From Rubricoccaceae bacterium (lineage in GTDB: Bacteria > Bacteroidota > Rhodothermia > Rhodothermales > Rubricoccaceae), in assembly GCA_035304085.1 (NCBI GenBank), contig DATGQT010000028.1, positions 1 to 50,962 of the forward strand: a stretch of 50,962 bases of DNA, given 5' to 3'. Below, one piece after another: positions 50-49,985 of the stretch (position 1 is the first letter of the stretch; each line of letters opens with the position of its first letter). The translations under genes were made by a program, and so were the position numbers. The notes beneath the pieces were generated by a model. The model saw only the letters and a program-made list of their open reading frames with translations. It searched no databases and was not told the DNA's origin.

Positions 50-736
50 TCACGCCGCGGCCTCGGGGCGCTGCTGGAGGCGGCGGTGGCGCACGTCCAC
101 CCCCTCGATGAGGAAGACGACCGTCTCGGCGATGTTCTTCGCGTGGTCGGCGATCCGCTCGACCCCCTTGCTCATCGTCACGAGGTGGACGAGGGCCTCG
201 GCGTCGGCGGGGTTCTCCTTGAGCAGGGCCACGACGCGCTGGAAGGCCTGCTCGTGGAGGGCGTCCACCTCGCGGTCGCGCCCGATGACGCGGCGGGCCA
301 GCATCCGGTCCCGCTTCATGAACGCGTCCTGCGCCTCGCGGAGGATCGCGCGCGCGGCGTCGGCCATCCGCCCGAGCTGGGCCTGCTCGACGAGGTCGCT
401 GCGGCCGGCGAGGTAGGGGGTGTACTTCGCGAGGTTCTTCGCGTGGTCCCCGATCCGCTCGAGGTCCGTGTTGATCTTGACCGCCGTCACGAGGAGGCGG
501 AGGTCGACGGCGACGGGGGTGTGGAGGGCGAGGATCCGCTCGCACTGGTGGTCGACCTCGAGCTCGAGCCGGTCCACCTCGTCGTCGCGGTCGCGGACGC
601 GCGCGGCCTTGTCGGCGTCGCAGCGGGTGACGGCGTCGATGGCGTCGGCGAGCTGCTCGTCGACGAGGAGGTGCATCTGGACGAGGAGGTCCCAGAGGAT
701 CTGGAGCTCCTCGTCGAGGGGGCGGTGGACGGGCAT
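50..736 (-). CDS. phoU: Phosphate transport system regulator PhoU
   Basis: 228-aa ORF with the duplicated PhoU helical repeat (DLERIGDHAKNLAKY and GVERIADHAKNIAE). It is the last gene of the pst operon. Confidence 0.93.
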   Translation of the reverse strand: MPVHRPLDEELQILWDLLVQMHLLVDEQLADAIDAVTRCDADKAARVRDRDDEVDRLELEVDHQCERILALHTPVAVDLRLLVTAVKINTDLERIGDHAKNLAKYTPYLAGRSDLVEQAQLGRMADAARAILREAQDAFMKRDRMLARRVIGRDREVDALHEQAFQRVVALLKENPADAEALVHLVTMSKGVERIADHAKNIAETVVFLIEGVDVRHRRLQQRPEAAA

Positions 737-855
737 GGGGGAAGGTGAAAAGTGTAAAGTGAGAAGTGAAAAGGGAGAAGTATGAGGGCTCGGGCCGGAG
801 CACGGGGCTCTTCGTGCCCTCTCTCACTTCTCACCTTTCCCTTTTCCCTTCGGCG
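737..855. repeat. Intercistronic word-hairpin element E1 (word GTGARAA)
   Basis: The left arm GAAGGTGAAAAGTGTAAAGTGAGAAGTGAAAAGGGAGAAG (741-780) is answered by CCCTCTCTCACTTCTCACCTTTCCCTTTTCCCTTC (about 817-851), an imperfect reverse complement. It fills the phoU-pstB gap and is lower in GC than the flanks. Confidence 0.7.
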
Positions 856-1728
856 TCAGCCGAAGCGGCCGGTGATGTAGTCCTCGGTGCGGGGGTTCGT
901 CGGGCGCGTGAAGAGCACGTCGGTGTGGTTGAGCTCGACGAGTTCGCCGAGGTAGAAGAACGCGGTCTCGTCCGAGATCCGCGAGGCCTGCTGCATGTTG
1001 TGCGTGACGATGACGATGGTGTAGTCCTTCTTCAGCTCGAGGATGGTCTCCTCCAGCTTCGCCGTGGCGATGGGGTCGAGCGCGGAGGCCGGCTCGTCCA
1101 TGAGCACGACGTCGGGGCGGACGGCGAGGGTGCGCGCGATGCAGAGGCGCTGCTGCTGGCCGCCGGAGAGGCCGTAGGCGTGGTCGTGGAGGCGGTCCTT
1201 CACCTCGTCCCACAGCGCGGCCTGCCGGAGGCACCGCTCCACCAGCTCGTCCATGTCGCCCCGGTACCCGTTGATCCTGGCGCCCCAGGCGACGTTCCTG
1301 TAGATCGTCTTCGGGAACGGGTTGGGCTTCTGGAACACCATCCCGATGCGGCGGCGGACCATCACGGGGTCGGCGCCGCCGTAGACGTCCTGGCCGTCTA
1401 TGCGGATGCGGCCGGTGAGGCGGGTGCCGGGGATGAGCTCGTTCATCCGGTTGAGGCACCGGAGCAACGTGCTCTTGCCGCAGCCCGAGGGGCCGATGAA
1501 CGCCGTCACCTGGTGCGCCGGCACGTCCATCGAGATGCCCTTGAGGACCTGCTTGTCGCCGTAGAAGAACGAGACGTCCTCGATCTGGATCTTGGGCTGC
1601 GCCGTCGCGGTGCGGTCAGCCGGGCCTGCGGGTGCGGGGCCCGTTCCAGGGGCGTCGGGGCCGGGGTGGTGCGCCAGGGCCTCGGCCTCCTCGCGGAGCG
1701 TCTCGGCGGTGTTCGTCGGGTCGGGCAT
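856..1728 (-). CDS. pstB: Phosphate ABC transporter ATP-binding protein PstB
   Basis: Walker [13 protein letters not shown] signature LSGGQQQRL and Walker [13 protein letters not shown]. The PstB-typical N-terminal part is [12 protein letters not shown]. The N-terminal 45 aa are low complexity, so the start could lie further downstream at a non-ATG codon. Confidence 0.93.
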
Positions 1729-1809
1729 GGGGTCGAAGGTCTGAAGGTCGCAAGTCGGAGGTCAAGGGTCCACTGACTTTGGACTTCCGGACCTTCGACT
1801 TGCGACCGT
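1729..1809. repeat. Intercistronic word-hairpin element E2 (word GAAGGTC)
   Basis: GGTCGAAGGTCTGAAGGTCGCAAGTCGGAGGTCAAGGGTCC is followed by GGACTTCCGGACCTTCGACTTGCGACC. GGTCGCAAGTCGGAGGTC pairs with GACCTTCGACTTGCGACC. It fills the pstB-pstA gap. Confidence 0.75.
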
Positions 1810-2706
1810 TCATCCGCCACGGTGGCGCTCGAAGTGGTTGCGGAGGAGGATGGCAGAGAGGTTCATCGTGAACAGGAGCACCATGAGCACGACGATGGCG
1901 GCGGCTGCGAGCCCCTGGAACGCGACCTGCGGCCGGGCGGTCCAGTTGAAGATCTGGATGGGCAGCACCGTGAACGAGTCCATCACCGACGCGGGCAGGA
2001 ACGCCACGAACGAGAACGCCCCGATCATGATGAGCGGCGCCGTCTCGCCGATGGCGCGGCTGAGCGCGAGGATGACGCCCGTGAGGATGCCGGGCGCGGC
2101 GACGGGGAGGAGGTGGCCCCAGACGACCTGCCAGCGCGTGGCGCCGAGGGCGTAGGCGCTCTCGCGCAGCCCCGAGGGCACGGCCCGCAGCGCCTCCTGC
2201 GTCGCGATGATGAGGACGGGCAGCACCAGCAGCGCCATCGTGATGCTCCCGGCCAGGAGGCTGCGGCCGAGGCCGAAGAACCGCACGAACAGCGCCAGCC
2301 CGAGGATGCCGTAGAGCACGCTCGGCACCCCGGCGAGGTTGGCGATGTTGACCTGGATCGCGCGGAAGAGCCACGACCGCGGCGCGTACTCCTCCAGGAA
2401 CACCGCGCTCGCCACGCCGACGGGCACGGCCAGCAGCGCCGTCAGCCCCATCACCCACAGCGAGCCGACGAGCGCGCTCTTGATGCCGGCGCGCTCGGGG
2501 ATGCGCGAGGGGTAGCTGTCGAGGAAGCCGAGGTCGAGCCACGGCAGCCCCTTCAGGAACACGTCCACGAGGAGGGTGACGAGGACGAGGATCCCGAACA
2601 GCGTGGCGAGGAACAGCGCGGCGGCGAGCACGAGGCTCCGGCGCTTCCGCGCCGCGACGCGCTCGTCGAAGTCGGGGGCGTCGAAGTCGGGGGCGGCAGT
2701 GGGCAT
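1810..2706 (-). CDS. pstA: Phosphate ABC transporter permease PstA
   Basis: Multi-TM permease with the EAA-loop region ([14 protein letters not shown]). I place the start at the internal ATG 2706 (MPTAAPDFD...). The 21 codons upstream in the track ORF are the translated E3 element. Confidence 0.9.
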
Positions 2707-2781
2707 GGGGAGGCACTGGCCATTGGGCACTGGGCACTGCGTCTGAGGAGCGGAGTCCCCAGTGCCCAATCCCTAGTGGCC
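2707..2781. repeat. Intercistronic word-hairpin element E3 (word GGGCACT)
   Basis: GGCCATTGGGCACTGGGCACTGC (2718-2740) is answered by CCCCAGTGCCCAATCCCTAGTGGCC (2757-2781). It fills the pstA-pstC gap. Confidence 0.75.
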
Positions 2782-3744
2782 CTAATACCGCTCCTGGAAG
2801 CGGCGGATGACGGCGTTGGCGAGGAGGTTCATCCCGAGCGTGAGGAGGAACAGCAGGAGGCCGACGGCGAAGAGGCTGTGGAAGACGGTCGAGCCGGCCG
2901 GCGTGTCGCCCAGGCTCACCTGCACGATGAACGCCGTCATCGTCTGGACCGACGCCGTGGGGTCGAGCGTGAGGCGCGGCGTGGCGCCGGCCGCCAGCGT
3001 CACGATCATCGTCTCCCCGATGGCGCGGCTGAGCGCGAGGATGAACGAAGCGACGATGCCGGAGAGCGCGCCGGGCACGAGCACGCGGAGGACGACCTCG
3101 ACCTTCGTCGCGCCGAGGGCGTAGGCGCCGTCGGCCAGCGCGCGGGGGACGGCCCTCAGGGCGTCCTCGCTGAGGGAGGCCACCATCGGCAGGATCATCA
3201 CGCCCACGACGAGCCCGGCCGAGAGGGCGTTGTAGATGCTGAGCGCGGGGATGAGCTGCTGCAAGAGCGGCGTCACGAACGTGAGGGCGAAGTAGCCGTA
3301 GACCACCGTCGGCACGCCCGCGAGCAGCTCCAGCCCGGGCTTGAGGACCTTCCGCACGCGCGCCGGCGCGTACTCGGCGATGTAGATCGCGCTCATGAGC
3401 CCGAGCGGCAGCGCCACCGCCGCGGCGATCACGGTGATGAGGAGCGTCCCGCTGACGAGCGGGAGCACGCCGTACTGCGGGTCCACGAACTGCGGCGTCC
3501 ACTCGGTCTCCGTCAGGAACTGGAGGGGCGAGACCTCGGCGAAGAAGGCGAGCGACTCGTAGACGAGCACGCCGGCGATGCCGAGGGTGGTCACGACCGA
3601 GAGCATCGCGCAGGCGCCGAGGGCGGCGGCGATGGCGCGCTCCTTCGGGCTGCGGAAGACGTTGGCCGTGAGGTCCACCGCGGGCGTGTCCCGGGGGTGC
3701 TCCGGGTCCATCTCCGCGAGGGGGTGCTGCTGCGCGAGGTCCAT
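2782..3744 (-). CDS. pstC: Phosphate ABC transporter permease PstC
   Basis: This is the C-terminal 320 codons of the artefactual 1090-aa track ORF. The start ATG is at 3744 (MDLAQQHPL...). The protein is a six-TM permease with DGAYALGATKVEVV. Confidence 0.9.
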   Translation of the reverse strand: MDLAQQHPLAEMDPEHPRDTPAVDLTANVFRSPKERAIAAALGACAMLSVVTTLGIAGVLVYESLAFFAEVSPLQFLTETEWTPQFVDPQYGVLPLVSGTLLITVIAAAVALPLGLMSAIYIAEYAPARVRKVLKPGLELLAGVPTVVYGYFALTFVTPLLQQLIPALSIYNALSAGLVVGVMILPMVASLSEDALRAVPRALADGAYALGATKVEVVLRVLVPGALSGIVASFILALSRAIGETMIVTLAAGATPRLTLDPTASVQTMTAFIVQVSLGDTPAGSTVFHSLFAVGLLLFLLTLGMNLLANAVIRRFQERY

Positions 3745-3839
3745 CGGTTGGGAAAGGGAGAGTGGGGGAGTGGGAGAGAGGGGGAAGGGGCGAGGGATAG
3801 ACATCTCCCTTTCCCTCTCTCTCCCTTTCCCCCCTTCTC
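3745..3839. repeat. Intercistronic word-hairpin element E4 (word GGGAGAG, homopurine/homopyrimidine)
   Basis: An almost pure purine run, GGGAAAGGGAGAGTGGGGGAGTGGGAGAGAGGGGGAAGGGGCGAGGGA, is followed by a pyrimidine run, TCCCTTTCCCTCTCTCTCCCTTTCCCCCCTTCTC. It fills the pstC-pstS gap. Confidence 0.75.
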
Positions 3840-4835
3840 TTACGGAGCGGACGTCGAGTCGGAGGCGCCCTCGCGGCGAAGGAGGTCCTCGATGGTCACG
3901 CCCACCTGCGAGCCGCCAGCGAACACGCTGCCCGTCGTGCCGGCGGCGAAGCGCTCGCGCGCGGCGGCGTAAGCCTCGGCCGAGAGCGGGACGTACCCCA
4001 CCTCCGGGGCGAGGGGGGCGGCGTTGTCGAGGTAGAACGCGACGAAGGCGCGGACGGCGGGGTCGGTGGTGCGGTCGGCACGGACGTAGATGAAGATGGG
4101 GCGGGAGAGCGGGGTGTAGGAGCCGTCCTGGACCGTCGCGGCGCCGGCCGCCACGCAGCCGCTGCCGTCGTCCACGCCGAGGAGCCGCAGCTTGTCCTGG
4201 TTGGCCTCGTAGTAGGCGAGGGGGATGAAGCCGAGGGCGCCGGGGTCGCCGGCGACGCCCTGCACGAGCACGTTGTCGTCCTCGCTGGCGGTGAAGTCGG
4301 CGCGGGAGGCGCCCTCCTCGCCGCCTACGGCCTCGGTGAAGTAGTCGTACGTGCCGCTGTCGGTGCCGGCGCCGTAGAGCGTGAGCGGGCGGCCCGGGAA
4401 CCCGGCGCGGACCTGGCTCCAGTCGCTGACGGTCGAGCCCGGCGCCCAGATCGCCCTCAGCTCCTCGACCGTGAGGCACTCGACGAAGTCGTTGCCGGGG
4501 TTCGTGACGATGGCGATGCCGTCGTAGGCGACGGGGAGCTCGATGAAGTCGTAGCCGCCGGCCACCTCGTCGGGCTTGACGGGGCGGGAGGCGTCGCTGA
4601 TGTCGGTCTCGCCGCGGAAGAACTTGGCGAAGCCGCCGCCGGTCCCGCTCGTGCCGACGGTCACGCGGACGCCGGGGTTCGCGATCATGAACTCCTCGGC
4701 CACCGCCTCCGAGAGGGGGGCGACCGTCGAGGAGCCGTCCACGAGGATGCTGCCGGAGAGGCCGTCGCCGCTGGCACGGTCGCCGCCGCAGGCGGCGAGG
4801 AGGGGAAGGGCGAGTGCGAGGAGGGTTCGTTTCAT
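3840..4835 (-). CDS. pstS: Phosphate-binding lipoprotein PstS
   Basis: Start at ATG 4835 ([18 protein letters not shown], which contains a lipobox). The PstS-family motifs are [10 protein letters not shown] and GTSGTGGGF. Confidence 0.9.
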
Positions 4836-4919
4836 GGGGGAGAGGGTTCGATCTCCGTGTTGCGTATCGCGTGTTTCGTGTTCTCCTGGATCCGACACGC
4901 AACACGCAACACGAAGACC
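4836..4919. repeat. Intercistronic word-hairpin element E5 (word CGTGTTG)
   Basis: CCGTGTTGCGTATCGCGTGTTTCGTGTTC is answered by GACACGCAACACGCAACACGAAG. It fills the pstS-porin gap. Confidence 0.7.
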
Positions 4920-5942
4920 CTAGAACGTGAACTCGGCGGTGAAGCGGGCCTGGAGGTCGGCCTCGTCGGCGCCGTCGGCGCGGGCCCAGCGGAGGTTGGG
5001 GATGAGGCGGACGGGCTCGGCGGGCGCGTACGAGAGCCCGAGGAGGGCGAAGCTGTGGTGGCCGGCGACGACCTCGCCGGGGGCGTCGGCGAACGCATCC
5101 TGCCGCGTCCGGTCGAACCGCGCGACGGCCTCGACGCCGTCGGCCACCTCGACGACGCCGAAGGCGCTCACGGCGGCCCCGCCCAGCCCCTCCTCGGCCC
5201 CCTCGAAGCCGACGCCGCGGAGGTACCCCTCGACGCCCACGCGCCAGGTGTCGGTGACGTAGGCGGCGAGCGCGAAGAGGACGTGCTCGGTGTCGCGGTC
5301 GTCGGGGAAGGTTGCGAGGGAGGCGCCGACGGCGAGGACGACGGGCTCGGCCGGGCGCACCTGGAGCCGCGCGTAGCCGCGCTTGTGCCGGTCGTCCTCG
5401 GGGAAGACGCCCTCGCCGTTGGCCGCCATCACGGCGTAGCGGAGGAGCCCCTCGCGGCCGACGGGGATCGGCCCCTCGGCGCGGAGGCCGAAGTCGCGCG
5501 ACGCGATCACCCCGTTGAGGTCCATCAGCGTCTTCTCGAGGCTGCGGTAGCCCCACACGTCCTCGGTGAGGTCGTAGGCCGGGGGCGAGGTGATGCCGAG
5601 GGTGAGGCGGTGGCCGCCCGGGCTCTGCCAGCGGAGGTAGAGGTCCTTCACGAAGGGGACCGCCCCGCGGTCGCCCAGACCGACGTCGGCGGCCTCGAGG
5701 CGGGCGCGGGCGCTGAAGGCGTCGGAGAGCCGGGCGTCGGTGGTGAGGTAGAGGCGGCGGAACGTGAACCCGTGGAGGCCGTCGCGGGCCGAGTCGGGCG
5801 AGGCGAGCTGGTAGTAGTAGTCGAGGTAGGCGAGCCCGCCGACGCGCACCTCGGGCTGGGCGGCGGCGGGCCGGGCGAGGCCGGCCAGCCCCAGCAGCGC
5901 GAGGGCGACGAGGCGGGCAGGGCGGGGGGGACCTGGCCGCAT
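4920..5942 (-). CDS. Outer-membrane beta-barrel porin, probably phosphate-selective (first gene of the pst operon)
   Basis: Signal peptide ([17 protein letters not shown]), alternating beta-strand pattern and a C-terminal aromatic residue (AEFTF). The position directly upstream of pstS suggests an OprO/OprP-like role. That specificity is inferred, not shown. Confidence 0.65.
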
Positions 5943-6326
5943 GGGAGTGGGGGTGGGTGAGAGGCACGCCCGGCCGCGTGGAGCGGGGCGGGCGAGGGAC
6001 CGGGGATAAGCTACCGGGGCGGACGGCGGGGGGGATTACGCCGGTGTTAAGCACGCGCGGCGCAGGGTGAGAGCGTGCCTATGAGGGCTGATCGTTCCCC
6101 CTCCCCCTGCGCAGCGGGGGGAGGACCCATTCATAAGACAGGCTCTGAGGGTCCCGGCGGCCTCCGAGGGCGTGATCTTTGCCGCGCGGTAGCGGCGGCG
6201 GCCGGAAAGGGCGAACTTCGCCCCGCGGCGGCCGTAAGGCACGAAGCCGAGCGCGTCCCGCGTTCGCCCGCCGTCCCCCTTTTGCGCCATCGGCGCCCGC
6301 TTTCGCGACCCACCCGCCCCCGCCCC

Positions 6327-8030: not shown

Positions 8031-8350
8031 GCGCCCGCGGCCCCGCGCGCGGCGGGGCAAAAAATCCGCACCGGCGCGGGGCCGCGGAGCAACTCCGCCG
8101 CCCCGCGCGTGTCTAGACGCGACGCCGACGCGGCGTCCGGGCCCCCGCTCGCGTCGCCTGCGGCGCCCGTTGCGTTGACAATCTGGGGAGGAGTAGGGTT
8201 ATTCGCCCCGTTCTCTCGGCGGCGCCGTGGTCCCCTTCGGGGTTGCCCCTCTCCCCCTCCTGCCCGTCCCGCCGTCCGCATCCCAGGCCCTTCCCCGAAG
8301 GCGCCGTCACCCCCGCTCACCCCGCTTACGCACCCCCAAGAGGTCGTCTT

Positions 8351-10589: not shown

Positions 10590-10613
10590 CCGTTTCTACG
10601 GACCAGGTCATCC

Positions 10614-10656
10614 CCGCGGGGGCGGCTCGAGTGTGGGCCGCCCCCGCGGCGTTTCC
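10614..10656 (+). terminator. Hairpin terminator after the exbBDD cluster
   Basis: Perfect 13-bp stem CCGCGGGGGCGGC / GCCGCCCCCGCGG (10614-10626 and 10637-10649), followed by CGTTTCC. Confidence 0.6.
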
Positions 10657-10748: not shown

Positions 10749-11777
10749 ATGGCCTACCGTGTCACCCTCATCCCCGGCGACGGGATCGGCCCCGAGGTCG
10801 TCGGCGCGGCGCGGCGCGTGCTCGAGGCGACCGGCGTCGCGTTCGAGTGGGACGAGCAGGTGGCGGGGATGGCGGCCTTCGAGGCCACCGGCGACCCGCT
10901 CCCGCCTCCCGTTCTCGACGCCATCGCGCGGACGCGCCTCGCGCTGAAGGGCCCGCTCGCGACGCCCGTCGGCGGCGGCTTCCGCAGCGCCAACGTCCGG
11001 CTCCGCCAGCACTTCGACCTCTACGCGAACGTGCGCCCGGCCGAGACCCTCCCCAACACGAACACCCCCTTCCGCGGGCTCGACCTCGTCCTCTACCGCG
11101 AGAACACCGAGGGCCTCTACGCCGGCATCGAGTACTTCGACGAGCGGAACCAGATCGCCGACTCCATCGCGCGCGTGACGCGGCGGGGGAGCGAGCGGAT
11201 CGTCCGGTTCGCCTTCGAGGACGCCCGCCGCCGCGGCCGCCGCCGGATCACCCTCGTCCACAAGGCCAACATCCTCAAGGCCGCCGGCCGGATGTTCCTC
11301 GACATCGGCCGCGAGATCGCGAAGGACTACCCGGACATCGCCTTCGACGACCGGATCGTCGACAACATGGCGATGCAGCTCGTCATCCACCCCCAGGACT
11401 ACGACTGCCTCGTCACGACGAACCTCTTCGGCGACATCCTGTCCGACCTCATGGCCGGGCTCGTCGGCGGCCTCGGCGTGACCGGCTCGGCCAACGTCGG
11501 CGACGACTGCGCCATCTTCGAGGCCGTCCACGGCTCGGCGCCGGACATCGCGGGGAAGGGGATCGCCAACCCCACCGCCGTCATCCGCGCCGGCGAGATG
11601 CTGCTCCGCCACGTCGGCGAGGCCGAGGCGGCCGAGGCCGTCCGCCGCGCCCTCCACGACGTCTACGCCGAGGGCACCCGCCTCACGGCCGACCTCGGCG
11701 GCACCGCCTCCACCGACGCCTTCGCCGACCACCTCGCGGCGAGGGTCGAACGTCAAATGTCGAAGGTCGAAGGTTGA
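10749..11777 (+). CDS. NAD-dependent isocitrate/homoisocitrate (isopropylmalate-family) dehydrogenase
   Basis: [31 protein letters not shown] and [17 protein letters not shown] are hallmarks of the beta-decarboxylating dehydrogenase family. The last 10 codons ([10 protein letters not shown]) are read from element E6. Confidence 0.85.
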
Positions 11778-11821
11778 CCATCCGACCTTCGACGCTTGGA
11801 CCCCAGACCTGAGACCCCCCG
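11744..11821. repeat. Word-hairpin element E6 (word GAAGGTC)
   Basis: In GGTCGAACGTCAAATGTCGAAGGTCGAAGGTTGACCATCCGACCTTCGACGCTTGGACC, GTCGAAGGTCG pairs with CGACCTTCGAC. It overlaps the 3' end of the dehydrogenase ORF. Confidence 0.7.
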
Positions 11822-12251: not shown

Positions 12252-13160
12252 ATGGCCGCGGGGCCGCCGACGGCGCGCGACCGCCTCGGGGCGGTGCCGC
12301 TGCACGTGTGGGCGGTCCTGGCCGTGGGCCTCGCCACGTTCGGCTCGTCGGCCATCCTGGTGCGCTACGCTTCGGAGGCGCCGGCGCTGGCCCTCGCCGT
12401 GTGGCGGACGACCTTCGCGGCCGTGCTCGTGGCGCCGGTGGCGCTGGCGAAGGCGGGGCCGCAGCTCCGCCGCCTGCCGCCGCGCGACCTCGCGCTCATC
12501 GGGGCGGCGGGCGTGCTCCTCGGCCTCCACTTCATCGGCTACATCGAGTCGCTCTACCACACGAGCGTGGCGAGCGCCTCGGTGCTCGTCACGACGAGCC
12601 CGCTGTTCATCGCCGCCCTCGGGTACGCCTTCCTCCGCGAGCGCCTCGCGCTGCGGACCGTCCTCGCCATCGCGGCGGCCGTCGCCGGCGCCGCTCTCAT
12701 CGGGCTGGCCGACGCGCAGGCGGGGGCGTTCCCGCGCGCGGGCTTCGGCAACGCGCTCGCCCTCCTGGCGGCGCTACTGTTCTCGGTCTACATCCTCATC
12801 GGGCGGGCGGTGCGGCAGCGGATGGGCTTCCTCCCCTACCTCCTCCCGCTCTACGCCGTCGCGGCGGCGACGTGCGTGGGGGCGGCGCTGCTGCGGGGGG
12901 TGCCGCTGGCGCAGCCGTGGCCGGTCCTCGGGCTGTGCCTGCTGATGGCGCTCGGCCCGCAGCTCCTCGGGCACGGCTCGTTCAACTACGCCGTGCGCTA
13001 CCTCCCGGCGGCGCTCCTCGGGCTCCTCTCCCTCATCGAGCCCGTCGTGGCCTCGTTCCTGGCCCTCGTCCTCTTCGGCGAGCGCCCGCCGCTGCTGGCG
13101 GTGGCGGGGATGGCCGTCGTGCTCCTCGCCATCGCCGCCGTCTTCGCGCGACGAACGTGA
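12252..13160 (+). CDS. EamA/DMT-family transporter
   Basis: Ten-TM protein made of two EamA-like halves. Confidence 0.8.
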   Translation: MAAGPPTARDRLGAVPLHVWAVLAVGLATFGSSAILVRYASEAPALALAVWRTTFAAVLVAPVALAKAGPQLRRLPPRDLALIGAAGVLLGLHFIGYIESLYHTSVASASVLVTTSPLFIAALGYAFLRERLALRTVLAIAAAVAGAALIGLADAQAGAFPRAGFGNALALLAALLFSVYILIGRAVRQRMGFLPYLLPLYAVAAATCVGAALLRGVPLAQPWPVLGLCLLMALGPQLLGHGSFNYAVRYLPAALLGLLSLIEPVVASFLALVLFGERPPLLAVAGMAVVLLAIAAVFARRT

Positions 13161-13222
13161 TTACGTGACGCGTGATTACGTGAACGCTCCCTCTCACGTA
13201 ATCACACCCTTCACGTAATCAC
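13157..13222. repeat. Word-hairpin element E7 / bidirectional terminator (12-mer GTGATTACGTGA, two direct plus two inverted copies)
   Basis: GTGATTACGTGA lies at 13157-13168 and 13172-13183. Its exact complement TCACGTAATCAC lies at 13194-13205 and 13211-13222. The element sits between the convergent stop codons at 13160 and 13225. Confidence 0.85.
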
Positions 13223-13224
13223 GT

Positions 13225-14289
13225 TCACCGCCAGCCGGGAAGGAAGCGCCGCACGGGGAGGTCCGAGAAGTGCCGCCGGCCGCGGGCGAAGTAGTCGAGG
13301 ACGATGGCGCCGCGGTAGGGGGGGAGGAGGGCCAGCGCGTCGTCGGGAGGCCGGGCGTCGGCGTAGCGGGGGAAGAGGGCGCGGGCGTCGGCGTAGGCGC
13401 GGCGGATGGCGGCGGCCTCGGCGGGGCCGCCGGCGGCGCGGGCGCGCGCCCACGCGAGGGCGTCGAGGGCGCGGCGGGCGCGGGCCACGCGGCGCCACTC
13501 GCGCGGGGGGAGGTTCTTGTAGAGCATGACGAGGCTGTTGCGGAAGTTGTAGTACGCCTTCCGCGGGTCGCCCTGCGGCAGCGACGCGCCGCCGAGGTGG
13601 TACGCCACGCTCTGCGGCGCCACGCGCACGCGCCAGCCGGCCCGCCACAGCCGCCAGCACAGGTCCACCTCCTCCATGTGCATCCCGAACGCCTCGTCGA
13701 AGCCGCCGACGGCCTCGAACGCCTCGCGGCGCACGACGAGGCAGGCGCCGGAGGCCCAGAAGACGTCGCGGGCGTCGTCGTACTGCCCCCGGTCCTCCTC
13801 CAGCGTGAAGAACAGCCGGCCGCGCGTGAACGGGTAGCCGTAGGCGTCGAGGAAGCCGCCCGCGGCGCCGGCGTACTCGAACCGCGCGCGGTCGCCGTGC
13901 TGGAGGAGCTTGGGCTGGACGGCCGCCGCGTCGGGGATCGCCTCCAGCGTCGCCACGAGCGGGCGGAGCCACCCCGGCGGCACCTCGACGTCGTTGTTGA
14001 GGAAGACGAGGTGGCGGCCCGTGGCGTGGGGCACGGCCGCGTTGTTGCCCCGCGCGAACAGCCAGTTCTCGGGGTGGCGCACGACGACGACCCCGGGGTG
14101 CGCCGCCGCCAGCCAGTCGGCCGTCCCGTCCGTCGAGGCGTTGTCGGCCACGACGACCTCGAGGTCGGGGTAGTCGGTCGCGAGGACGGACGGGAGGAAC
14201 CGCTCCAGCAGCGCGCGCCCGTTCCACGTCACGATGACGACGGAGACGCGGGGGGTGCCTGAGGAGAGGCGCGGGAGGGGGACGAGCAC
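13225..14289 (-). CDS. Family 2 glycosyltransferase
   Basis: VSVVIVTWNG...ATDYPDLEVVVADNASTDGT plus the DxD-like NNDVEV and a later EEVDLCWR motif. Confidence 0.88.
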   Translation of the reverse strand: MLVPLPRLSSGTPRVSVVIVTWNGRALLERFLPSVLATDYPDLEVVVADNASTDGTADWLAAAHPGVVVVRHPENWLFARGNNAAVPHATGRHLVFLNNDVEVPPGWLRPLVATLEAIPDAAAVQPKLLQHGDRARFEYAGAAGGFLDAYGYPFTRGRLFFTLEEDRGQYDDARDVFWASGACLVVRREAFEAVGGFDEAFGMHMEEVDLCWRLWRAGWRVRVAPQSVAYHLGGASLPQGDPRKAYYNFRNSLVMLYKNLPPREWRRVARARRALDALAWARARAAGGPAEAAAIRRAYADARALFPRYADARPPDDALALLPPYRGAIVLDYFARGRRHFSDLPVRRFLPGWR

Positions 14290-15172: not shown

Positions 15173-15230
15173 ATAAAAAAGGCGCCGGCGCGGCCTGTAA
15201 GACCCCACCACGAGTCCAGGCCGCGCCGGC
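15173..15230 (-). terminator. Intrinsic terminator (minus strand)
   Basis: The 14-bp GC stem GCCGGCGCGGCCTG (15184-15197) / CAGGCCGCGCCGGC (15217-15230) is followed on the minus strand by GCCTTTTTTAT. Confidence 0.6.
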
Positions 15231-21224: not shown

Positions 21225-22565
21225 ATGCGTGACCTGCTTATCGTTCTCTTCGTGCTCGCGCTGCCCGGGGGAGCAGCGCGAGCACAGGGGAAGTTGACGG
21301 GCGGGCTCCTCACGTGGGAGCGCGTCGGCGACTTCCCCGTCAAGCCTACGGCTCTCGCCTTCGATGGCGCGGGGGCATTGTATGCCGTCCATATCGTCGA
21401 TGTATACCATCTCGACCTCTCGGGCGGCTTCCCCGGCGTGTGGGAGTTCCGGAGCGAGGAAGCCGACGATGATGCGCTGCTCGGGCTCGGCCCTGACACC
21501 CTCATCGCCACGGGCGGCCATACCGAGCGCTCGACCGACGGCGGCTGGACATGGGTCGAAGTCCACGAGGACGGGAGCGATAGCTCGTTCGGGCTCCACG
21601 AAGCCGCTCCCGATACCCCCTTTGCGGGAAACCTCTTCGTCGGGAGCTTCCCCCCCGCGGCCTCAGAAGACCGGGGGGCCACATGGGAGGAGCGGGGGCA
21701 GATCCCCGGGTTCGGTGAGAGCGCTGACGTCTTCGTCACGCTCTCCTCCGGCCGCCTCGTCGCGGGCGCCCACTGGGGCGCCGCCTACTCCGATGACGCG
21801 GGGTGGACGTGGCAGACCTCCTCGCTGTGGGAGTTCGGCCGATTTCTGTGCGACATCATCACGCGGGTCGAATCGCCGGACGGGGGAGAGCGTGTGCTCG
21901 TAAGGGGTGTGGACGCGCTGCTCCCCCACGCCCGCGTGTGGTACAGCGATGACGGCGGGGAGACGTGGCTGCCGGAGGAAGGCGTCCCACTCCCGGATGC
22001 CGACAACGGTGTAGGCCGAGGGCATGCAGCGGGGCTCTGGGCGCTCGGTGGGGCGCGGGCGCTGGCCGTCCTCGGGCGGGGCGTGGTCTACGCGACCGAG
22101 GATGGGGGTGAGACGTGGTCGGAGGTGGGGCAGCTCCCCGACGTCGATGAGAACACCTACGCGCACACCTCGGTGCTTGGCCTCGACGGTCGGCTCTACG
22201 TCGGCCTCGTCCGAATCGGCAGCCAGCCGGGGAACAGCTGGGTATACCGGACGGAGCAGCGGGTGGCGCCGCCCGTCGCCGCCGAGCCGGGGCTGGAGCC
22301 GCAGGAAGGGCTGGGGCTGGAAGTGCGGCCGAACCCGTCCTCCGGCGAGGTCGTCGTCGAGGTCACGCTGGCCGCGCCGAGCGCCGTCCGTCTCACCGTC
22401 CACGACGCGCTCGGGCGGGAGGTCGCCGTCGTCCACAACGGCCAGCTCCCTGCGGGCGCCCGCACGTTCGCCTTCGACGGCGCTGCGCTCCCCTCCGGCG
22501 TCTACGTCGTGCAGATGGAGGCGAAGGGGGCCTCGGTGAGCCGCCGCTTCACGCTCGTGCGCTGA
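21225..22565 (+). CDS. BNR/Asp-box beta-propeller protein with a T9SS C-terminal sorting domain
   Basis: Start at ATG 21225, 5 nt after the previous stop, with a signal peptide. There are five S/T-x-D-x-G-x-T-W boxes (STDGGWTW, SEDRGATW, SDDAGWTW, SDDGGETW, TEDGGETW). The C-terminus is VRPNPSSGEVVV...LPSGVYVVQM...RRFTLVR. Confidence 0.8.
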   Translation: MRDLLIVLFVLALPGGAARAQGKLTGGLLTWERVGDFPVKPTALAFDGAGALYAVHIVDVYHLDLSGGFPGVWEFRSEEADDDALLGLGPDTLIATGGHTERSTDGGWTWVEVHEDGSDSSFGLHEAAPDTPFAGNLFVGSFPPAASEDRGATWEERGQIPGFGESADVFVTLSSGRLVAGAHWGAAYSDDAGWTWQTSSLWEFGRFLCDIITRVESPDGGERVLVRGVDALLPHARVWYSDDGGETWLPEEGVPLPDADNGVGRGHAAGLWALGGARALAVLGRGVVYATEDGGETWSEVGQLPDVDENTYAHTSVLGLDGRLYVGLVRIGSQPGNSWVYRTEQRVAPPVAAEPGLEPQEGLGLEVRPNPSSGEVVVEVTLAAPSAVRLTVHDALGREVAVVHNGQLPAGARTFAFDGAALPSGVYVVQMEAKGASVSRRFTLVR

Positions 22566-22588: not shown

Positions 22589-22611
22589 GGCGCGGAGACG
22601 GCCTCCGCGCC
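22589..22611. terminator. Bidirectional hairpin between convergent genes
   Basis: GGCGCGGAG-ACGGC-CTCCGCGCC, flanked by an A-rich 5' side (AAAACGAAA) and CTTC. Confidence 0.55.
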
Positions 22612-22636
22612 CTTCAGAGGAGTGCACGCGCTCCGG

Positions 22637-29774: not shown

Positions 29775-29936
29775 CGGTCAGTGGTCCGTGGTCAGTGGTC
29801 CGTGGTCAGTGGTCCGTGGTCAGTGGTCAGTGGTCAGTGGTCAGTGGTCAGTGGTCAGTGGTCAGTGGGGCAAGGACGGGACGGGAGAAGTTCCCCTGTC
29901 TTCTGCCCTCTGTCTTCTGACCCCTGACCCCTGGAC
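29775..29936. repeat. Element E8: 13-unit heptamer tandem array plus conserved core plus pyrimidine word arm
   Basis: 29776-29866 is (GGTCAGT GGTCCGT)x3 then (GGTCAGT)x7. It is followed by GGGGCAAGGACGGGACGGGAGAAGTTCCCCTGTCTTCTGCCCTCTGTCTTCTGACCCCTGACCCCTGGACC. The array ends 1 nt from ATG 29774 of the downstream (minus-strand) gene. Confidence 0.9.
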
Positions 29937-30332
29937 CTACCGGCGCAGGGCCTCGAGGCGGTCCGCGACGAGGCGGTAGAGGGCAGCGGCCTCGTCGGGG
30001 CGGTGGGCGACGGCGGCGAGGCGGGCGGCGACGGAGGCGGAGTCGAGGCCGGTGGTGCGGCGGACGTGGGCGTAGGCGGCGGCGCGGAGGCTATCGGCGT
30101 CCTCGCCGGTGGCGTCGGCGCGGGCGTCGGCGAGGTGGAGGGGGACGAGGGCGTCGGCGAGGAGGCTGTCGGGGGTCACCTCGGGCTCGGCGTCGCCGGG
30201 GCCCCCGCCGCACCCGAGGAGCAGGAGGAAAAGCGCCAGCGCGCAAGCACGGGGGCGTGCAAGCGGGCAGGCGTGCGCTCGTGCGCTCCTGTGCGCCCGC
30301 TCGCTTGCGTGCCCGCTCGCTTGCGCGCTCAT
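29937..30332 (-). CDS. Small lipoprotein of unknown function
   Basis: Lipobox LFLLLLGCGG. The only in-frame start is ATG 30332, which overlaps the upstream stop. The first 30 codons are read from element E15. Confidence 0.55.
   Translation of the reverse strand: MSAQASGHASERAHRSARAHACPLARPRACALALFLLLLGCGGGPGDAEPEVTPDSLLADALVPLHLADARADATGEDADSLRAAAYAHVRRTTGLDSASVAARLAAVAHRPDEAAALYRLVADRLEALRR
30241..30330. repeat. Word-hairpin element E15 (word GCAAGCG), embedded in the 5' end of a CDS
   Basis: GCGCAAGC...GTGCAAGCGGGCAGG (left) is answered by GCCCGCTCGCTTGCGTGCCCGCTCGCTTGCGCGC (right, a direct duplication of GCCCGCTCGCTTGCG). Confidence 0.6.
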
Positions 30333-32399: not shown

Positions 32400-33047
32400 T
32401 CAGGCGGCGGTGGCGGCGCGGAAGGCGTCGAAGAAGGCGTCGAGGCGGTCGAAGTCCATCGCCCCCGGCGCCGCCTCGACCGAGGGGCCGAGGTCGAGGG
32501 CGTACGGCCGCATCGCGGCGACGGCCCCGGCCACGTTGCCCGCCGTGAGATCGCCGGCGAGGAAGAGGGCGAAGTCGCGGGCGAGGTCGCGGACGGTCCG
32601 CCAGCTGAGGCTCTCGCCCGGCCCGTCCCACAGCCCCGTCCCCGCGGTGTCGAGGCGGACGAACGCGGCGGCGTCGCGGTAGACCTCTACCAGCGCGCGG
32701 AGTTGCTCGGCCGAGGCGTCGTGCCGCACGCGGAACGTCTTGACGACGGGGACGGCGACGGCGGCGCAGGCCTCGGGCGGCTCGTGGCCGTCGAGGCGGA
32801 CGAGGCGGAAGCCGGCCGCCTCCACGGCGCGGTTCACCTCCTCGGGCGGCGCGTCGGTGAACGCGCCCACGGGCTCCGGCCCCATCACCCACGCCATGAC
32901 CTCCCGCACCCGCTCCGGCGGCACGTAGCGCGGGCTGGCGGGGTCCTGGTCGAAGGCGAGGTAGTCCGCGCCCATCGCCGCGGCGAACCGGGCGTCTTCG
33001 AGGCGGGTGATGCCGGAGAGGCTGATCCTGGGGTTCGCTGCGCTCAC
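32400..33047 (-). CDS. trpF: Phosphoribosylanthranilate isomerase
   Basis: ISLSGITRLEDARFAAAMGADYLAF at the N-terminus and a (beta/alpha)8-type length. The GTG start at 33047 overlaps the trpG stop (GTGA). Confidence 0.8.
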   Translation of the reverse strand: MSAANPRISLSGITRLEDARFAAAMGADYLAFDQDPASPRYVPPERVREVMAWVMGPEPVGAFTDAPPEEVNRAVEAAGFRLVRLDGHEPPEACAAVAVPVVKTFRVRHDASAEQLRALVEVYRDAAAFVRLDTAGTGLWDGPGESLSWRTVRDLARDFALFLAGDLTAGNVAGAVAAMRPYALDLGPSVEAAPGAMDFDRLDAFFDAFRAATAA

Positions 33048-33691
33048 GTCGGAAGGTCCAAGGTCTGAAGGTCGAAGGTCGGTGGACGGGGCTCGGACGT
33101 CCGACCTTCAGACCCGGGACCCGCGACGGCGAAGCGTACCCAGTTCGCGACGATCCGCGGCCCCTCCGTCGTCAGCACGCTCTCGGGGTGGAACTGGACG
33201 CCCTCGACGGGGAAGCGGCGGTGGCGGAGGCCCATGATCGTGCCGTCGTCGGTCCACGCCGAGACCTCCAGCGCCTCCGGCAGCGCGGCCCGGTCGGCCA
33301 CGAGGGAGTGGTAGCGCGTGGCGAGGAAGCCCTGCGCGACGCCCTCGAAGACCCCCCGGCCGTCGTGGCGGACGCGGCTGGTCTTGCCGTGGACGGGCGC
33401 CGGCGCGTGGACGACGCGCCCGCCGTAGACCTCGGCCATCGCCTGGAGGCCGAGGCAGACGCCGAGGACGGGCGTCGTCGGGCCGAGGCGGCGGAGGAGG
33501 GCCTCCGAGATGCCGGCGTCGGCCGGGCGGCCCGGGCCGGGCGAGATGAGGATGCCCGCCGGCGCCATCGCCGCCACGTCCTCGACCGTCACCGCGTCGT
33601 TCCGCACCACCACCACCTCGCCCGCAGCCGCCTCGACGAGGTGGACGAGGGTGTACGTGAACGAGTCGTAGTTGTCGAGGACGAGGATCAT
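33044..33691 (-). CDS. trpG: Anthranilate (or aminodeoxychorismate) synthase glutamine-amidotransferase subunit
   Basis: MILVLDNYDSFTYTLV, nucleophile elbow GVCLGLQ, and the catalytic HPES. The last 25-28 codons (AVAGPGSEGRTSEPRPPTFDLQTLDLPT) are read through element E9. Confidence 0.88.
   Translation of the reverse strand: MILVLDNYDSFTYTLVHLVEAAAGEVVVVRNDAVTVEDVAAMAPAGILISPGPGRPADAGISEALLRRLGPTTPVLGVCLGLQAMAEVYGGRVVHAPAPVHGKTSRVRHDGRGVFEGVAQGFLATRYHSLVADRAALPEALEVSAWTDDGTIMGLRHRRFPVEGVQFHPESVLTTEGPRIVANWVRFAVAGPGSEGRTSEPRPPTFDLQTLDLPT
33048..33121. repeat. Word-hairpin element E9 (word GAAGGTC), inside the trpG 3' end
   Basis: GTCGGAAGGTCCAAGGTCTGAAGGTCGAAGGTCGG is answered by CGGACGTCCGACCTTCAGACCCGGGACC. 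GGTCTGAAGGTCGG pairs with CCGACCTTCAGACC. Confidence 0.75.
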
Positions 33692-34814: not shown

Positions 34815-34880
34815 AGCGGTCGACGGCGGACGGCTGACCGCGGACCGCCGTCCGCAATAAGCAGCGGTCAGCGGTCAACG
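34815..34880. repeat. Word-hairpin element E11 (word GCGGTC)
   Basis: In AGCGGTCGACGGCGGACGGCTGACCGCGGACCGCCGTCCGCAATAAGCAGCGGTCAGCGGTCAACG, GGCGGACGG pairs with CCGTCCGC(C). Confidence 0.6.
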
Positions 34881-40846: not shown

Positions 40847-41350
40847 TCAGGTTTCGCTGAGGTCGCGGTGGCCGAAGTAGTACAGGCACAGCTTCAGCTT
40901 CTCCGCCTTCAGCGGGCCGAACCCCGGCAGCGCCCGGACGCGCGCCTCGACCTCGGCGCAGGTGCCCTCGCCCCAGAGGTTGGCGGCGCTGCCGCCGTAG
41001 TCGTCGGCGAGGATGCGGGCGAGCGCCTGCGTCCGCGCGGCCATCGTCCCGGTGAAGCGGTGGACGGCCGGGGGCTCCCGGAAGACGGCCAGGAACGCGT
41101 CGGGGTCCATGTCGGCGATCCGCCTCATGTCGAGGTGGCCGAGGCGCCGGCGCAGCTTGAGCGGGCCGACGAACGCCGTCTCGGCCAGCACGCGCTGGTC
41201 GTAGAGGAGGCCGAGGAGGACGGCGTTGGGCTCGTCGCGGAGGAACGCGTCGGCGTCGGGGTCCTTCGTCGCCGTGCCCTCCATCTGGAGGCGGTCTAGC
41301 ATGCGGGCGAGGCCGCCTTCGAGGTGGGCGTAATCGGAAGCGTCGATCAT
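40847..41350 (-). CDS. HhH-GPD-type base-excision DNA repair-like protein
   Basis: Start at ATG 41350. AVLLGLLYDQRV...AVHRF...LPGFGPLKAEKLKLCL matches the small HhH-GPD-type family as I recall it. Confidence 0.65.
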   Translation of the reverse strand: MIDASDYAHLEGGLARMLDRLQMEGTATKDPDADAFLRDEPNAVLLGLLYDQRVLAETAFVGPLKLRRRLGHLDMRRIADMDPDAFLAVFREPPAVHRFTGTMAARTQALARILADDYGGSAANLWGEGTCAEVEARVRALPGFGPLKAEKLKLCLYYFGHRDLSET

Positions 41351-41466
41351 GGTCCGTGGTCCGTGGTCCGTGGTCCGTGGTCCGTGGTCCGTGGTCCGTG
41401 GTCCGTGGGGGAAGGGCGGGGCGGGAGAAGTTCCTCTGACCTCTGCCTTCTGACCCCTGTCTTCTG
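41351..41466. repeat. Element E12: 8-unit heptamer array plus the same conserved core as E8
   Basis: 41351-41406 is (GGTCCGT)x8, starting immediately after the ATG (41350-41348) of the minus-strand gene. It is followed by GGGGGAAGGGCGGGGCGGGAGAAGTTCCTCTGACCTCTGCCTTCTGACCCCTGTCTTCTGTC. Confidence 0.9.
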
Positions 41467-45300: not shown

Positions 45301-45411
45301 CCACCGGGGTGGGTCGTGCTATCGAACTGGCTCGGGCGCATGGTCGGAGAAGGGGTATCATGCTCTCCTTCCACCCCCTCCACCCTCCCCACCCTTTCCA
45401 CCCTCCATCCC
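45301..45411. repeat. Element E13 (word CCACCCT, pyrimidine tract)
   Basis: CTCTCCTTCCACCCCCTCCACCCTCCCCACCCTTTCCACCCTCCATCCCTC lies at 45363-45413. Upstream purine partners are GGGGTGGG (45307-45314) and GGAGAAGGGG (45346-45355). Confidence 0.55.
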
Positions 45412-48590: not shown

Positions 48591-48614
48591 TTCCCCACCG
48601 CAACCGCGAACCCC

Positions 48615-49958: not shown

Positions 49959-49985
49959 GGCTGCGGGGACGGATCGCGAAAGCGA

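Follow-up and report, generated by a model that had tools for sequence, protein, structure and literature searches.

The porin-pstS-pstC-pstA-pstB-phoU cluster (positions 50–5942, minus strand) of a 50,962-nucleotide stretch of DNA, all of which was analysed and is referred to here as the window, raises the question of what the sequences separating its genes are and how they arose. The genes were assigned by Pfam matches as phoU (50–736, PhoU), pstB (856–1728, ABC_tran), pstA (1810–2706, BPD_transp_1), pstC (2782–3744, BPD_transp_1), pstS (3840–4835, PBP_like_2) and the porin gene (4920–5942, Porin_4), all on the minus strand, and the gene calls came out the same on a contig of 99.9% identity. 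The DNA comes from a Rubricoccaceae-like member of the Rhodothermales with a genome of 72.5% GC, in which no Shine-Dalgarno motif was found. A sequence-only reading had located an element in each of the five gaps; its coordinates were correct, and the gaps are, as it had noted, lower in GC (0.56–0.68) than the coding sequence (0.72). Neither a sigma-70-like promoter nor a U-tract terminator was found in the five gaps.

Each gap contains short tandem repeats of a heptanucleotide, set out as a convergent inverted pair. The analysis confirmed the constant architecture described earlier (a tandem word, a spacer and the word run in inverted form, the words differing from one pst gap to the next), the absence of a REP/BIME/MITE-type consensus across the five gaps was borne out, and both arm pairs quoted as examples are present: GGTCGCAAGTCGGAGGTC (1746–1763) with GACCTTCGACTTGCGACC (1790–1807), and CATTGGGCACTGGG (2721–2734) with CCCAGTGCCCAAT (2758–2770). 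The word is indeed repeated in tandem, but the length given for it, 6–8 nt, was vague, since the period is sharply 7 and only occasionally 8. Identity at a lag of 7 nt was 0.51 versus 0.30 expected, with an echo at lag 14; the lag-7 z values were 9.8, for this comparison, and 14.1. Arm alignments and the lag-7 analysis indicated that mirror arms are approximately 81% identical unit by unit, versus approximately 51% between neighbouring units. Every pst gap contains inverted repeats of 23–36 nt with 77–87% complementarity, and the stems start 0–4 nt past the stop codon and end 4–17 nt before the next ATG. As mRNA-strand RNA, the gaps have folding energies of -38.9 to -52.6 kcal/mol (z -4.2 to -6.9 relative to dinucleotide-shuffled sequences), and in this comparison, which had been proposed as a check, none of 200 shuffles folded as well as the pst gaps.

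Element E1, in the pstB/phoU gap (737–855, minus strand), is a hairpin of GTGARAA-type heptamers whose loop contains a further, GC-rich hairpin (period 7, 5.3 copies by TRF; inverted repeats I15 and I19; folding energy of the mRNA strand -50.7 kcal/mol, z -4.8). The pstA/pstB gap holds E2 (1729–1809, minus strand), a GGTCGAA/GAAGGTC heptamer hairpin (period 7, 5.3 copies by TRF; inverted repeat I10; fold z -5.7), and on the mRNA the pstB ATG is preceded by 17 unpaired C-rich nucleotides. In the pstC/pstA gap, E3 (2707–2781, minus strand) is a GGGCACT heptamer hairpin (4 copies by TRF; inverted repeat I11; fold z -4.2), while the purine/pyrimidine hairpin E4 in the pstS/pstC gap (3745–3839, minus strand) is built of GGGAGAG(T) 7–8-mers (inverted repeats I1 and I7; fold z -4.5). 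CGTGTTG heptamers form the hairpin E5 in the porin/pstS gap (4836–4919, minus strand; inverted repeat I21; fold z -6.9), which is placed upstream of a retained leader, ACCCTCTCCCCC. Both E3 and E5 are lineage-specific, clean insertions of approximately 70 nt directly after TAG stop codons; no target-site duplication was seen at their junctions, and no seed for their words was visible in the DNA on either side or where relatives have an empty site.

The same design had been claimed for ten or more other gene borders in the window. It does recur, at slightly fewer places: six hairpins with significant folds and three arrays that are mostly single. E7 (11736–11815, plus strand; z -3.3, word matches) is a GAAGGTC hairpin whose 5' arm consists of the last codons of an isocitrate/isopropylmalate dehydrogenase-family gene, and all three of the three synonymous changes in the adjacent codons go towards the heptamer consensus, which indicates homogenisation at the DNA level. 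E8 (13145–13235, no strand assigned; inverted repeat I12, z -9.5) is an 8-mer hairpin of ACGTGATT between convergent genes, E10 (30236–30331, minus strand; inverted repeat I2, z -5.2) is an 8-mer hairpin of the GCAAGCGG type, and E11 (33046–33127, minus strand; inverted repeat I13, z -5.5) is a GAAGGTC hairpin located within a GATase ORF, at its 3' end; the GATase domain of this ORF stops at residue 184 of 215. Heptamers of GACCGCG/CAGCGGT form the hairpin E12 (34815–34880, minus strand; TRF, z -3.4), and 7–8-mers of the GCGTGAC type form E15 (48514–48602, plus strand; z -2.8, arm alignment). Two arrays abut start codons on the minus strand: E9 (29775–29936), with 13 copies of GGTCAGT/GGTCCGT (TRF, 93% matches), a weak partner arm and no significant fold, and E13 (41351–41466), a perfect array of 8.4 TGGTCCG copies (TRF, 100% matches).

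The words had been considered locus-specific. They do differ among the five pst gaps, and at least nine distinct words occur in 51 kb, but GAAGGTC is recurrent and E9 and E13 share a core. GAAGGTC was also found at 11740–11810 and 33048–33125 (8 matches versus 0.7 expected) and in the pstC/pstA gaps of Salinibacter and Salinivenus; the three GAAGGTC elements have the word alone in common, with a mean identity of 57% and differing loops and unit order. The core common to E9 and E13 is 76 nt long with 83% identity and lies upstream of unrelated genes. This core and the presence of GAAGGTC at three loci show that there is some copy-and-paste dispersal. No second copy of the other words was found within 51 kb.

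A second contig from the same species (L081), an independent assembly with 99.87% identity (15 SNPs and one 2-nt indel over 12.7 kb), carries identical elements, which are therefore not assembly artefacts. In relatives whose PstA is 82–93% identical, two gaps measure 0–12 nt, other words are found elsewhere, and the same word is found at only two. The pstC/pstA gap is 0–2 nt in L082, L084 and L085, and only 12 nt separate the porin gene from pstS in L082 and L084. A word is common with L082 only in the orthologous pstB/phoU gap, which also contains the E1 word CTTCTCAC, and in the pstA/pstB leader, where the L082 site has the leader-like GACCTTCTCTCCTTCGCCCCC only. Unrelated GC-rich hairpins occupy the pstS/pstC site in L084 and L086. 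The expectation that elements would be kept at orthologous gaps while their words change agreed with L279 (PstA 87%), in which all three visible gaps hold hairpins of words other than those found here, including one of 76 nt (GGGCGAG) between pstC and pstA, but not with L082, L084 and L085, where two gaps are only 0–12 nt. These comparisons indicate that the elements are gained, lost and rewritten within approximately 10–15% nucleotide divergence.

The density of period-7 arrays is 21.6 per 100 kb here, compared with 3.1 for the remaining Rhodothermales loci and 1.1 for other taxa. In viral contigs arrays of CGTGTTG were found at 23 loci, of its permuted control GCTGTTG at 24 and of GAAGGTC at 25; since arrays of arbitrary heptamers are equally common, a generic process is suggested rather than specific families. 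The arms are polar, G exceeding C in the 5' arm of 13 of the 14 window elements. Among the matches listed, paired (CGTGTTG)n arrays from metagenomes were G-first in 27 of 28, and single arrays between co-directional genes carried the C-rich version on the sense strand in 28 cases versus 5; this metagenome sample is confined to a single word, and phylogenetic dependence among its loci is possible. With gene starts set by a GC3 heuristic, the leader composition from -20 to -1 is 51% C and 20% G, and the C-rich 3' arm merges into the G-poor, Shine-Dalgarno-less leader ahead of nearly every start codon.

The reading that we favour, with a probability of about 0.6, is that the elements are DNA products of 7-nt slippage and inverted duplication that are tolerated as hairpins. 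A slippage-based generator had been among the origins suggested initially, and it fits the sharp 7-nt period and the arrays of 13 and 8.4 units; polymerase slippage is also the explanation given for heptamer excess in work cited in PMC4679880 and PMC4692102. Slipped-strand expansion by seven nucleotides would lengthen a short G-poor leader or an inserted seed, inverted duplication (by fold-back or template switch) would next make the upstream G-rich partner, and the arms would afterwards decay roughly neutrally. G-first polarity would be kept because a G-rich arm beside the ATG would destroy the unstructured leader. Local slippage is unable to explain the origin of E3 and E5, for whose words there is no visible seed, and the copy-and-paste dispersal seen with the E9/E13 core and with GAAGGTC also speaks against this reading. 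In a polycistronic pst mRNA each element would form an imperfect stem of 20–35 bp; as the stem runs from just past the stop codon to just before the ATG, the inserted 70–120 nt would be looped out with stop and start codons adjacent, which may be why insertions are tolerated within operons. A ribosome reaching the stop codon would open the stem at its base and release the leader, preserving translational coupling, and the stems might also serve as 3'-exonuclease barriers or RNase III-type targets. Any role in mRNA stability or translational coupling is putative; under this reading, the hairpin shape mainly makes the insertions tolerable, and an evolved function is not required.

Some of the same evidence would also suit mobile palindromic elements, REP/REPIN- or MITE-like, with one family per word spread by RAYT, transposase or recombination and the heptamer period being secondary. 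The clean insertion of E3 and E5 after TAG where relatives have 0–12 nt, the core shared by E9 and E13, and the occurrence of GAAGGTC at three window loci and in Salinibacter and Salinivenus all point that way. We nevertheless regard this origin as unlikely, because the five pst elements have no common consensus, the GAAGGTC elements share only their word, the E3 and E5 junctions lack target-site duplications, none of the remaining words recurs within 51 kb, and arbitrary heptamers form arrays just as often. Chance low complexity or an assembly artefact might be considered for a high-GC metagenome-type contig in which inverted repeats are frequent (228 pairs listed), but this was ruled out for practical purposes by the fold z scores of -4 to -7, the lag-7 z of 9.8 and the identical elements in L081, and the same architecture is found across many unrelated metagenome contigs.

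It is also rather improbable that the hairpins are RNA structures selected for operon punctuation, either as attenuators or as RNase III/exonuclease-barrier hairpins setting the PstS:PstCAB:PhoU ratio. Stems of 20–35 bp do sit exactly between cistrons, a hairpin of some sequence follows pstS and pstA in several relatives (L084, L086 and L279), and intergenic stem-loops in complex-encoding operons control stoichiometry (PMC4423207). Rfam gave weak matches only, to pre-miRNA-like long hairpins, the form that RNase III-class substrates take. However, four of the five pst gaps fold better as the antisense strand than as the mRNA strand, and the arm mismatches (65 only) comprise 27 transitions, split 14 to 13 by strand, versus 38 transversions, so that the mRNA strand shows no preference for G·U-compatible changes. 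Close relatives manage with 0–12 nt at two of the five sites, a U-tract is absent, and elements of this design are also found between convergent genes and within the ends of ORFs; overall, the sequence evidence argues weakly for selection at the RNA level. The intercistronic hairpins of T7 early mRNA cleaved by RNase III and of selective RNA processing (PMC4423207), which are likewise long imperfect stems, are a likely analogy for how the hairpins may behave, but those stems show conservation and have cleavage sites mapped by experiment, whereas the present ones are known from sequence and poorly conserved.

The pst-gap hairpins belong to a little-studied kind of bacterial repeat. The initial suggestion that no described class has this design is contradicted by cyanobacterial STRR (PMC2670836) and by convergent pairs in Xanthomonas (PMC4692102). 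REP/BIME, REPIN and MITE elements are also palindromic intergenic insertions inside operons that are able to stabilise upstream mRNA, but they have a family consensus, and in REP a conserved head recognised by RAYT, whereas the arms here are 7-nt tandem arrays without common consensus or target-site duplication. The TAACTGA direct repeats of marine Beggiatoaceae, cyanobacteria and some Bacteroidetes, for which a translational role was proposed (MacGregor 2015, PMC4679880), are similarly G-poor heptamer arrays in sense orientation immediately upstream of start codons, but consist of a single word that was inverted in one case among 170 sets (PMC4679880).

The STRR heptanucleotide repeats form a hairpin between the co-transcribed hupS and hupL (PMC2670836); such hairpins occur in Nostoc, Anabaena and Lyngbya, with proposed roles in transcript stability or translational coupling (PMC2670836; bioRxiv 10.1101/2022.06.06.494920). 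The present elements resemble STRR in their 7-nt units, in having several words per genome and in being intergenic, often beside start codons, but the host is a member of the Rhodothermales, in another phylum and with 72.5% GC, all gaps of one operon are occupied, and most arrays are hairpin-paired, whereas only few paired repeats were reported for Nostoc (PMC4692102). In Xanthomonas each genome has 70–75 GGGAATC pairs in convergent orientation (Rehm et al. 2015, PMC4692102); on either strand the G-rich array comes first, stem-loops or cruciforms can form, and the position is often preserved from one species to another despite variation in length and sequence (PMC4692102). High GC, intergenic heptamer arrays and convergent pairs are common to both, but Xanthomonas uses one dominant word with G-quadruplex potential, whereas at least nine words occur here and only E4 is G4-like. 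After the cyanobacterial and Xanthomonas cases, such elements are found here at unusual density in a GC-rich Rhodothermales bacterium.

Pfam matches placed the porin gene, followed by pstS, pstC, pstA, pstB and phoU, on the minus strand, and the gene calls were identical on a 99.9% identical contig. The five gaps between these genes, pstB-phoU (737-855, E1), pstA-pstB (1729-1809, E2), pstC-pstA (2707-2781, E3), pstS-pstC (3745-3839, E4) and porin-pstS (4836-4919, E5), are exact spacers from a stop codon to the next ATG, each 75-119 nt long, with a GC content of 56-68% compared with 72% in the genes and 72.5% in the window. All five contain an inverted repeat of 23-36 nt that is 77-87% complementary. 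Folding of the mRNA strand gave energies of -38.9 to -52.6 kcal/mol, and in the comparison with 200 dinucleotide-preserving shuffles, a control proposed in the sequence-only reading, z-scores of -4.8, -5.7, -4.2, -4.5 and -6.9 were obtained, with no shuffle folding as well. In the predicted MFE structures, stems of at least 20 bp lie between the cistrons, as in RNase III-type or stabiliser hairpins, starting 0-4 nt past the stop codon and ending 4-17 nt ahead of the ATG. TRF reported period 7 in E1, E2, E3 and E5 and period 8 in E4 (3756-3782), with 2.7-5.3 copies, and the lag-7 identity of the five pooled gaps was 0.51 compared with an expected 0.30 (z 9.8); the signal recurred at lag 14. The inverted repeats, the fold z-scores and TRF thus bear out the hairpin and repeated-word design that the sequence-only reading had described in the five gaps; its word length of 6-8 nt can be narrowed, since both the TRF period and the lag-7 autocorrelation indicate that the word is specifically a heptamer. 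Over 12.7 kb, an independently assembled second contig of the same species (L081) showed 15 substitutions and one 2-nt indel relative to the window, with no difference inside an element, and therefore the elements are real DNA with strain-level stability.

Knowledge of heptanucleotide repeats dates back to 1990, and many bacterial genomes carry them in excess. According to the summaries in PMC4679880 and PMC4692102, the simple repeats of bacteria include more heptamers than expected, and slippage of the polymerase was suggested as the cause. In heterocystous cyanobacteria, heptanucleotide repeats are known as STRR and fold into hairpins in the hupS-hupL gap and at other sites, for which a role in transcript stability or translational coupling was suggested (PMC2670836); the effect of STRR near start codons is not yet settled (bioRxiv 10.1101/2022.06.06.494920). 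Each Xanthomonas genome carries 70-75 convergent pairs of GGGAATC repeats, mostly between co-directional genes, which often occupy the same position in different species but differ in length and sequence (PMC4692102), and TAACTGA arrays are found in sense orientation directly upstream of start codons in Beggiatoaceae (PMC4679880). The pst elements match the STRR-type and other heptameric inverted pairs in having 7-nt tandem units in three or more copies, in their intergenic sites adjoining start or stop codons, in the convergent pairing into a stem-loop with the G-rich arm first (13 of the 14 window elements), and in rapid change of length and sequence between relatives. The earlier statement that no described class has this design was therefore wrong, as both STRR (PMC2670836) and the Xanthomonas pairs (PMC4692102) have been described. 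No description of such elements in Rhodothermales was found in the literature, and the window elements are a new, very dense case of a known, poorly understood kind of heptamer repeat. The case is also unusually clean; all five junctions of one operon are filled, each with a different word.

The 51 kb of the window contained 11 period-7 arrays, or 21.6 per 100 kb; the corresponding densities were 3.1 per 100 kb in other Rhodothermales loci (approximately 390 kb in total) and 1.1 per 100 kb in the remaining taxa. Six further significant hairpins with arms of 7-8-mers were identified outside the pst operon (11736-11815, 13145-13235, 30236-30331, 33046-33127, 34815-34880 and 48514-48602; fold z -2.8 to -9.5), and three sites consist mostly of single arrays (29775-29936, 41351-41466 and 45325-45411). 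At least nine distinct words occur in the window and G runs only in E4, which argues against a single genome-wide G-tract word of the Xanthomonas type. The sequence-only reading had considered the words to be locus-specific; each pst gap does have its own word, but GAAGGTC, the word of E2, is found at three loci of the window, with eight matches compared with 0.7 expected. Among the words searched with mismatches, GAAGGTC alone had further copies in the window, and the words of E3 (GGGCACT) and E5 (CGTGTTG) had none. In viral contigs, CGTGTTG arrays were present at 23 loci, those of the permuted control GCTGTTG at 24 and those of GAAGGTC at 25, so that the idea of CGTGTTG as a cosmopolitan, privileged word was rejected. 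Since the counts for the three words are alike, heptamer arrays of arbitrary sequence are generally common, a word-neutral frequency that fits generic 7-nt slippage better than sequence-specific families.

Searches for known element classes returned little. No Rfam family matched the window at gathering thresholds, and at E <= 1 the region 600-5100 gave nothing bacterial, only sub-threshold eukaryotic pre-miRNA models, which reflect a generic long hairpin only. There are no tRNAs in the window. A terminator scan detected no U-tract intrinsic terminators in the pst gaps, where C-rich sequence, leading up to the ATG, takes the place of a U-tract behind the mRNA-strand stems, and a promoter scan detected no sigma-70-like promoters there. 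Upstream of the porin gene, a block at 5990-6055, in sense orientation on the minus strand, is kept in two syntenic relatives (L082 and L084) and consists of TTAACAC-N4-GTAAT, then TAG(C/G)TT(A/T)(T/C)C, whose sequence resembles the Bacteroidetes -7 promoter box TAnnTTTG, then GGTCCCT(C/G)GCCC; this block is a candidate for the sole promoter, or for a Pho box, of the porin-pstSCAB-phoU unit. As the sequence-only reading had stated, no common consensus of the REP/BIME or MITE type exists across the five pst elements. The three GAAGGTC elements align at only 57% and have nothing in common beyond the word, and their alignment with elements of Salinibacter and Salinivenus likewise gave likeness at the word level only. 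A REP or MITE family appears unlikely on these grounds and because the E3 and E5 words lack extra copies in the window.

The best PstA relatives belong to Rhodothermales, and the closest named ones are Rubricoccaceae MAGs. Five syntenic loci, L082, L279, L085, L084 and L086, have PstA identities of 92%, 87%, 86%, 82% and 78%, respectively, and show empty, differently filled and orthologous states of the gaps, in marked contrast to the genes. The porin-pstS gap, 84 nt in the window, is 12 nt in L082 and L084, and the pstC-pstA gap, 75 nt in the window, is 0-2 nt in L082, L084 and L085 and 76 nt in L279, where it carries another word, GGGCGAG. Instead of the window hairpin, the pstS-pstC gap holds unrelated GC-rich hairpins in L084 and L086, and the pstA-pstB gap of L082 holds only the leader-like GACCTTCTCTCCTTCGCCCCC, the word of the window's 3' arm. 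In L082, the pstB-phoU element is orthologous to that of the window; both have the CTTCTCAC word, but the arms are remodelled. Gap length was equally variable in three further relatives (JGI sample 3300056388), as judged from gene coordinates only, and the more distant Salinibacter and Salinivenus have heptamer hairpins in pstC-pstA or pstB-phoU with other words or GAAGGTT. From these sequence comparisons, the length and sequence of the elements change rapidly between the related genomes L082, L084, L085, L086 and L279. The idea that orthologous gaps would keep an element while its word changes thus had a mixed outcome: some gaps are filled with another word, but the sites of E3 and E5 are 0-12 nt in some relatives. 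These near-empty gaps identify E3 and E5 as lineage-specific insertions.

G outnumbers C in the 5' arm of 13 of the 14 elements of the window, and because an inverted repeat reads alike on both strands, this polarity is a real two-state property. For a larger test, metagenome contigs were scanned with (CGTGTTG)2.7, the E5 word, which gave matches at more than 120 loci with GC contents of 0.38 to 0.73. Among the matches listed, 28 of 106 evaluable loci had an inverted partner within 100 nt, and the G/T-rich array came first in 27 of these 28; for single arrays between co-directional genes, again among the matches listed, the sense strand carried the C/A-rich version 28 times versus 5. The leaders of 46 predicted genes in the window (positions -20 to -1) contain 51% C and 20% G, typically with CCCC before the ATG, and no Shine-Dalgarno (SD) motif was found in them. 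Such C-rich, SD-less leaders are a striking translation-initiation signature of this lineage. The 3' arm of each hairpin runs on into the C-rich leader. The polarity is most simply explained if the start codon requires an adjoining G-poor tract, so that only G-first pairs survive. These two regularities, the G-rich arm first and the C-rich arm serving as a G-poor, SD-less leader, make the question of heptamer repeats testable.

Comparison of the arms unit by unit gave a mirror identity of approximately 81%, versus approximately 51% between adjacent units, as is expected from the inverted duplication of an array that was already degenerate. The arm mismatches comprised 27 transitions (14 wobble-compatible on the plus strand and 13 on the minus strand) versus 38 transversions, a small sample with no G·U bias that would point to selection at the RNA level, and the antisense strand folded better than the mRNA strand in four of the five pst gaps. 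Because of the even wobble split and the better antisense folds, this small sample gives no sign of selection preserving pairing in the pst mRNA. The dehydrogenase (Iso_dh-family) gene at 10749-11777 adjoins the element E7 (11736-11815) with its 3' end, and its last conserved codons, V-E-R-Q-M (within 11740-11777), are GTCGAACGTCAAATG in the window but GTCGAGCGGCAGATG in L084. The three differences are synonymous, introduce rare A/T-ending codons and in each case bring the sequence closer to the GTCGAAG unit, which suggests that the arrays homogenise neighbouring coding DNA. E11 (33046-33127), a complete GAAGGTC hairpin, lies inside the 3' end of the GATase (trpG-like) ORF (33044-33691) and makes up the C-terminal 27-31 residues of the protein, past its Pfam domain, which ends at residue 184 of 215; the stop codon of this ORF and the beginning of the PRAI (trpF-like) gene overlap. 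The position of E11 indicates that elements can be absorbed into coding sequence, and gene annotation in such genomes should allow for elements that extend ORF ends and bias adjoining codons.

We assign a probability of roughly 0.6 to the overall picture of heptamer repeat pairs together with the following origin and effect; that the elements are heptamer repeat pairs is far more secure than how they arose or what they do. Slippage by 7 nt would enlarge G-poor leader sequence or inserted seeds, inverted duplication would then add the G-rich partner upstream, and the arms would drift afterwards. Such insertions may be tolerated in operons if the stem loops the extra DNA out and leaves the stop and start codons adjacent; a terminating ribosome could then open the base of the stem, exposing the leader, and in addition the stems are likely to delay 3' decay or to recruit RNase III. 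Slippage of this kind does not account for the source of the E3 and E5 words, for which no seed was seen in the empty sites of relatives, or for the 76-nt core that E9 (29775-29936) and E13 (41351-41466), both adjoining start codons, have in common at 83% identity ahead of unrelated genes. For these reasons a contribution of mobile elements stays alive, although it is unlikely, and no target-site duplication was seen when filled and empty sites of E3 and E5 were compared. Segmental duplication was rejected as the source of the likeness between E9 and E13, since the proteins encoded downstream are unrelated. A near-perfect array of 13 GGTCAGT/GGTCCGT units lies directly at the start codon of an asparaginase-like gene (29776-29868), and 8.4 copies of TGGTCCG with 100% matches lie directly at that of a gene without a Pfam match (41350-41408); both arrays could represent hypermutable leaders or members of a dispersed element family.

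A joint reading, which we regard as doubtful, is that the hairpins are written de novo by replication or repair and not by a transposon, with the G-first polarity being either a signature of that process or a translation rule. Reiterative 7-nt slippage and fold-back (template-switch) synthesis could insert palindromes of 70-120 nt at stop/start junctions; the translation rule would be SD-independent, with the G-poor repeat leader unmasked by the terminating ribosome. If this latter form were true, the hairpins would be translational-coupling devices in operons of lineages without SD pairing. A telomere-like model, in which a break is healed by G-rich extension of both 3' ends that are then joined, would also give G-first pairs, but it was rejected, as nothing supports it and the diversity of words speaks against a fixed template.

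Other repeats were noted in the window and in the comparison loci. Hairpins of a second class, GC-rich, near-perfect and without heptamer periodicity, are located at further gene borders, several of which look like operon ends (8031-8100, 10613-10650, 15180-15230, 21250-21290, 22590-22620 and 49985-50025), and the sole indel between the window and L081 (8044-8045) falls inside one of them. GGGGATT, a G-rich heptamer already described from Nostoc and similar to the GGGAATC of Xanthomonas, forms arrays in a Longibacter MAG (L029:8900-8950) and in a metagenome contig (L199). Very long composite arrays and hairpins were found in five metagenome contigs with GC contents of 0.60-0.67 (L095, L174, L181, L200 and L205), with a heptamer that changes along the arm (ACGTGAA, ACGTGAG, GCGTGAT, GCGTGTT). 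In L174 this drift is mirrored in the opposite arm, which indicates that the same architecture occurs at larger scale in other bacteria.
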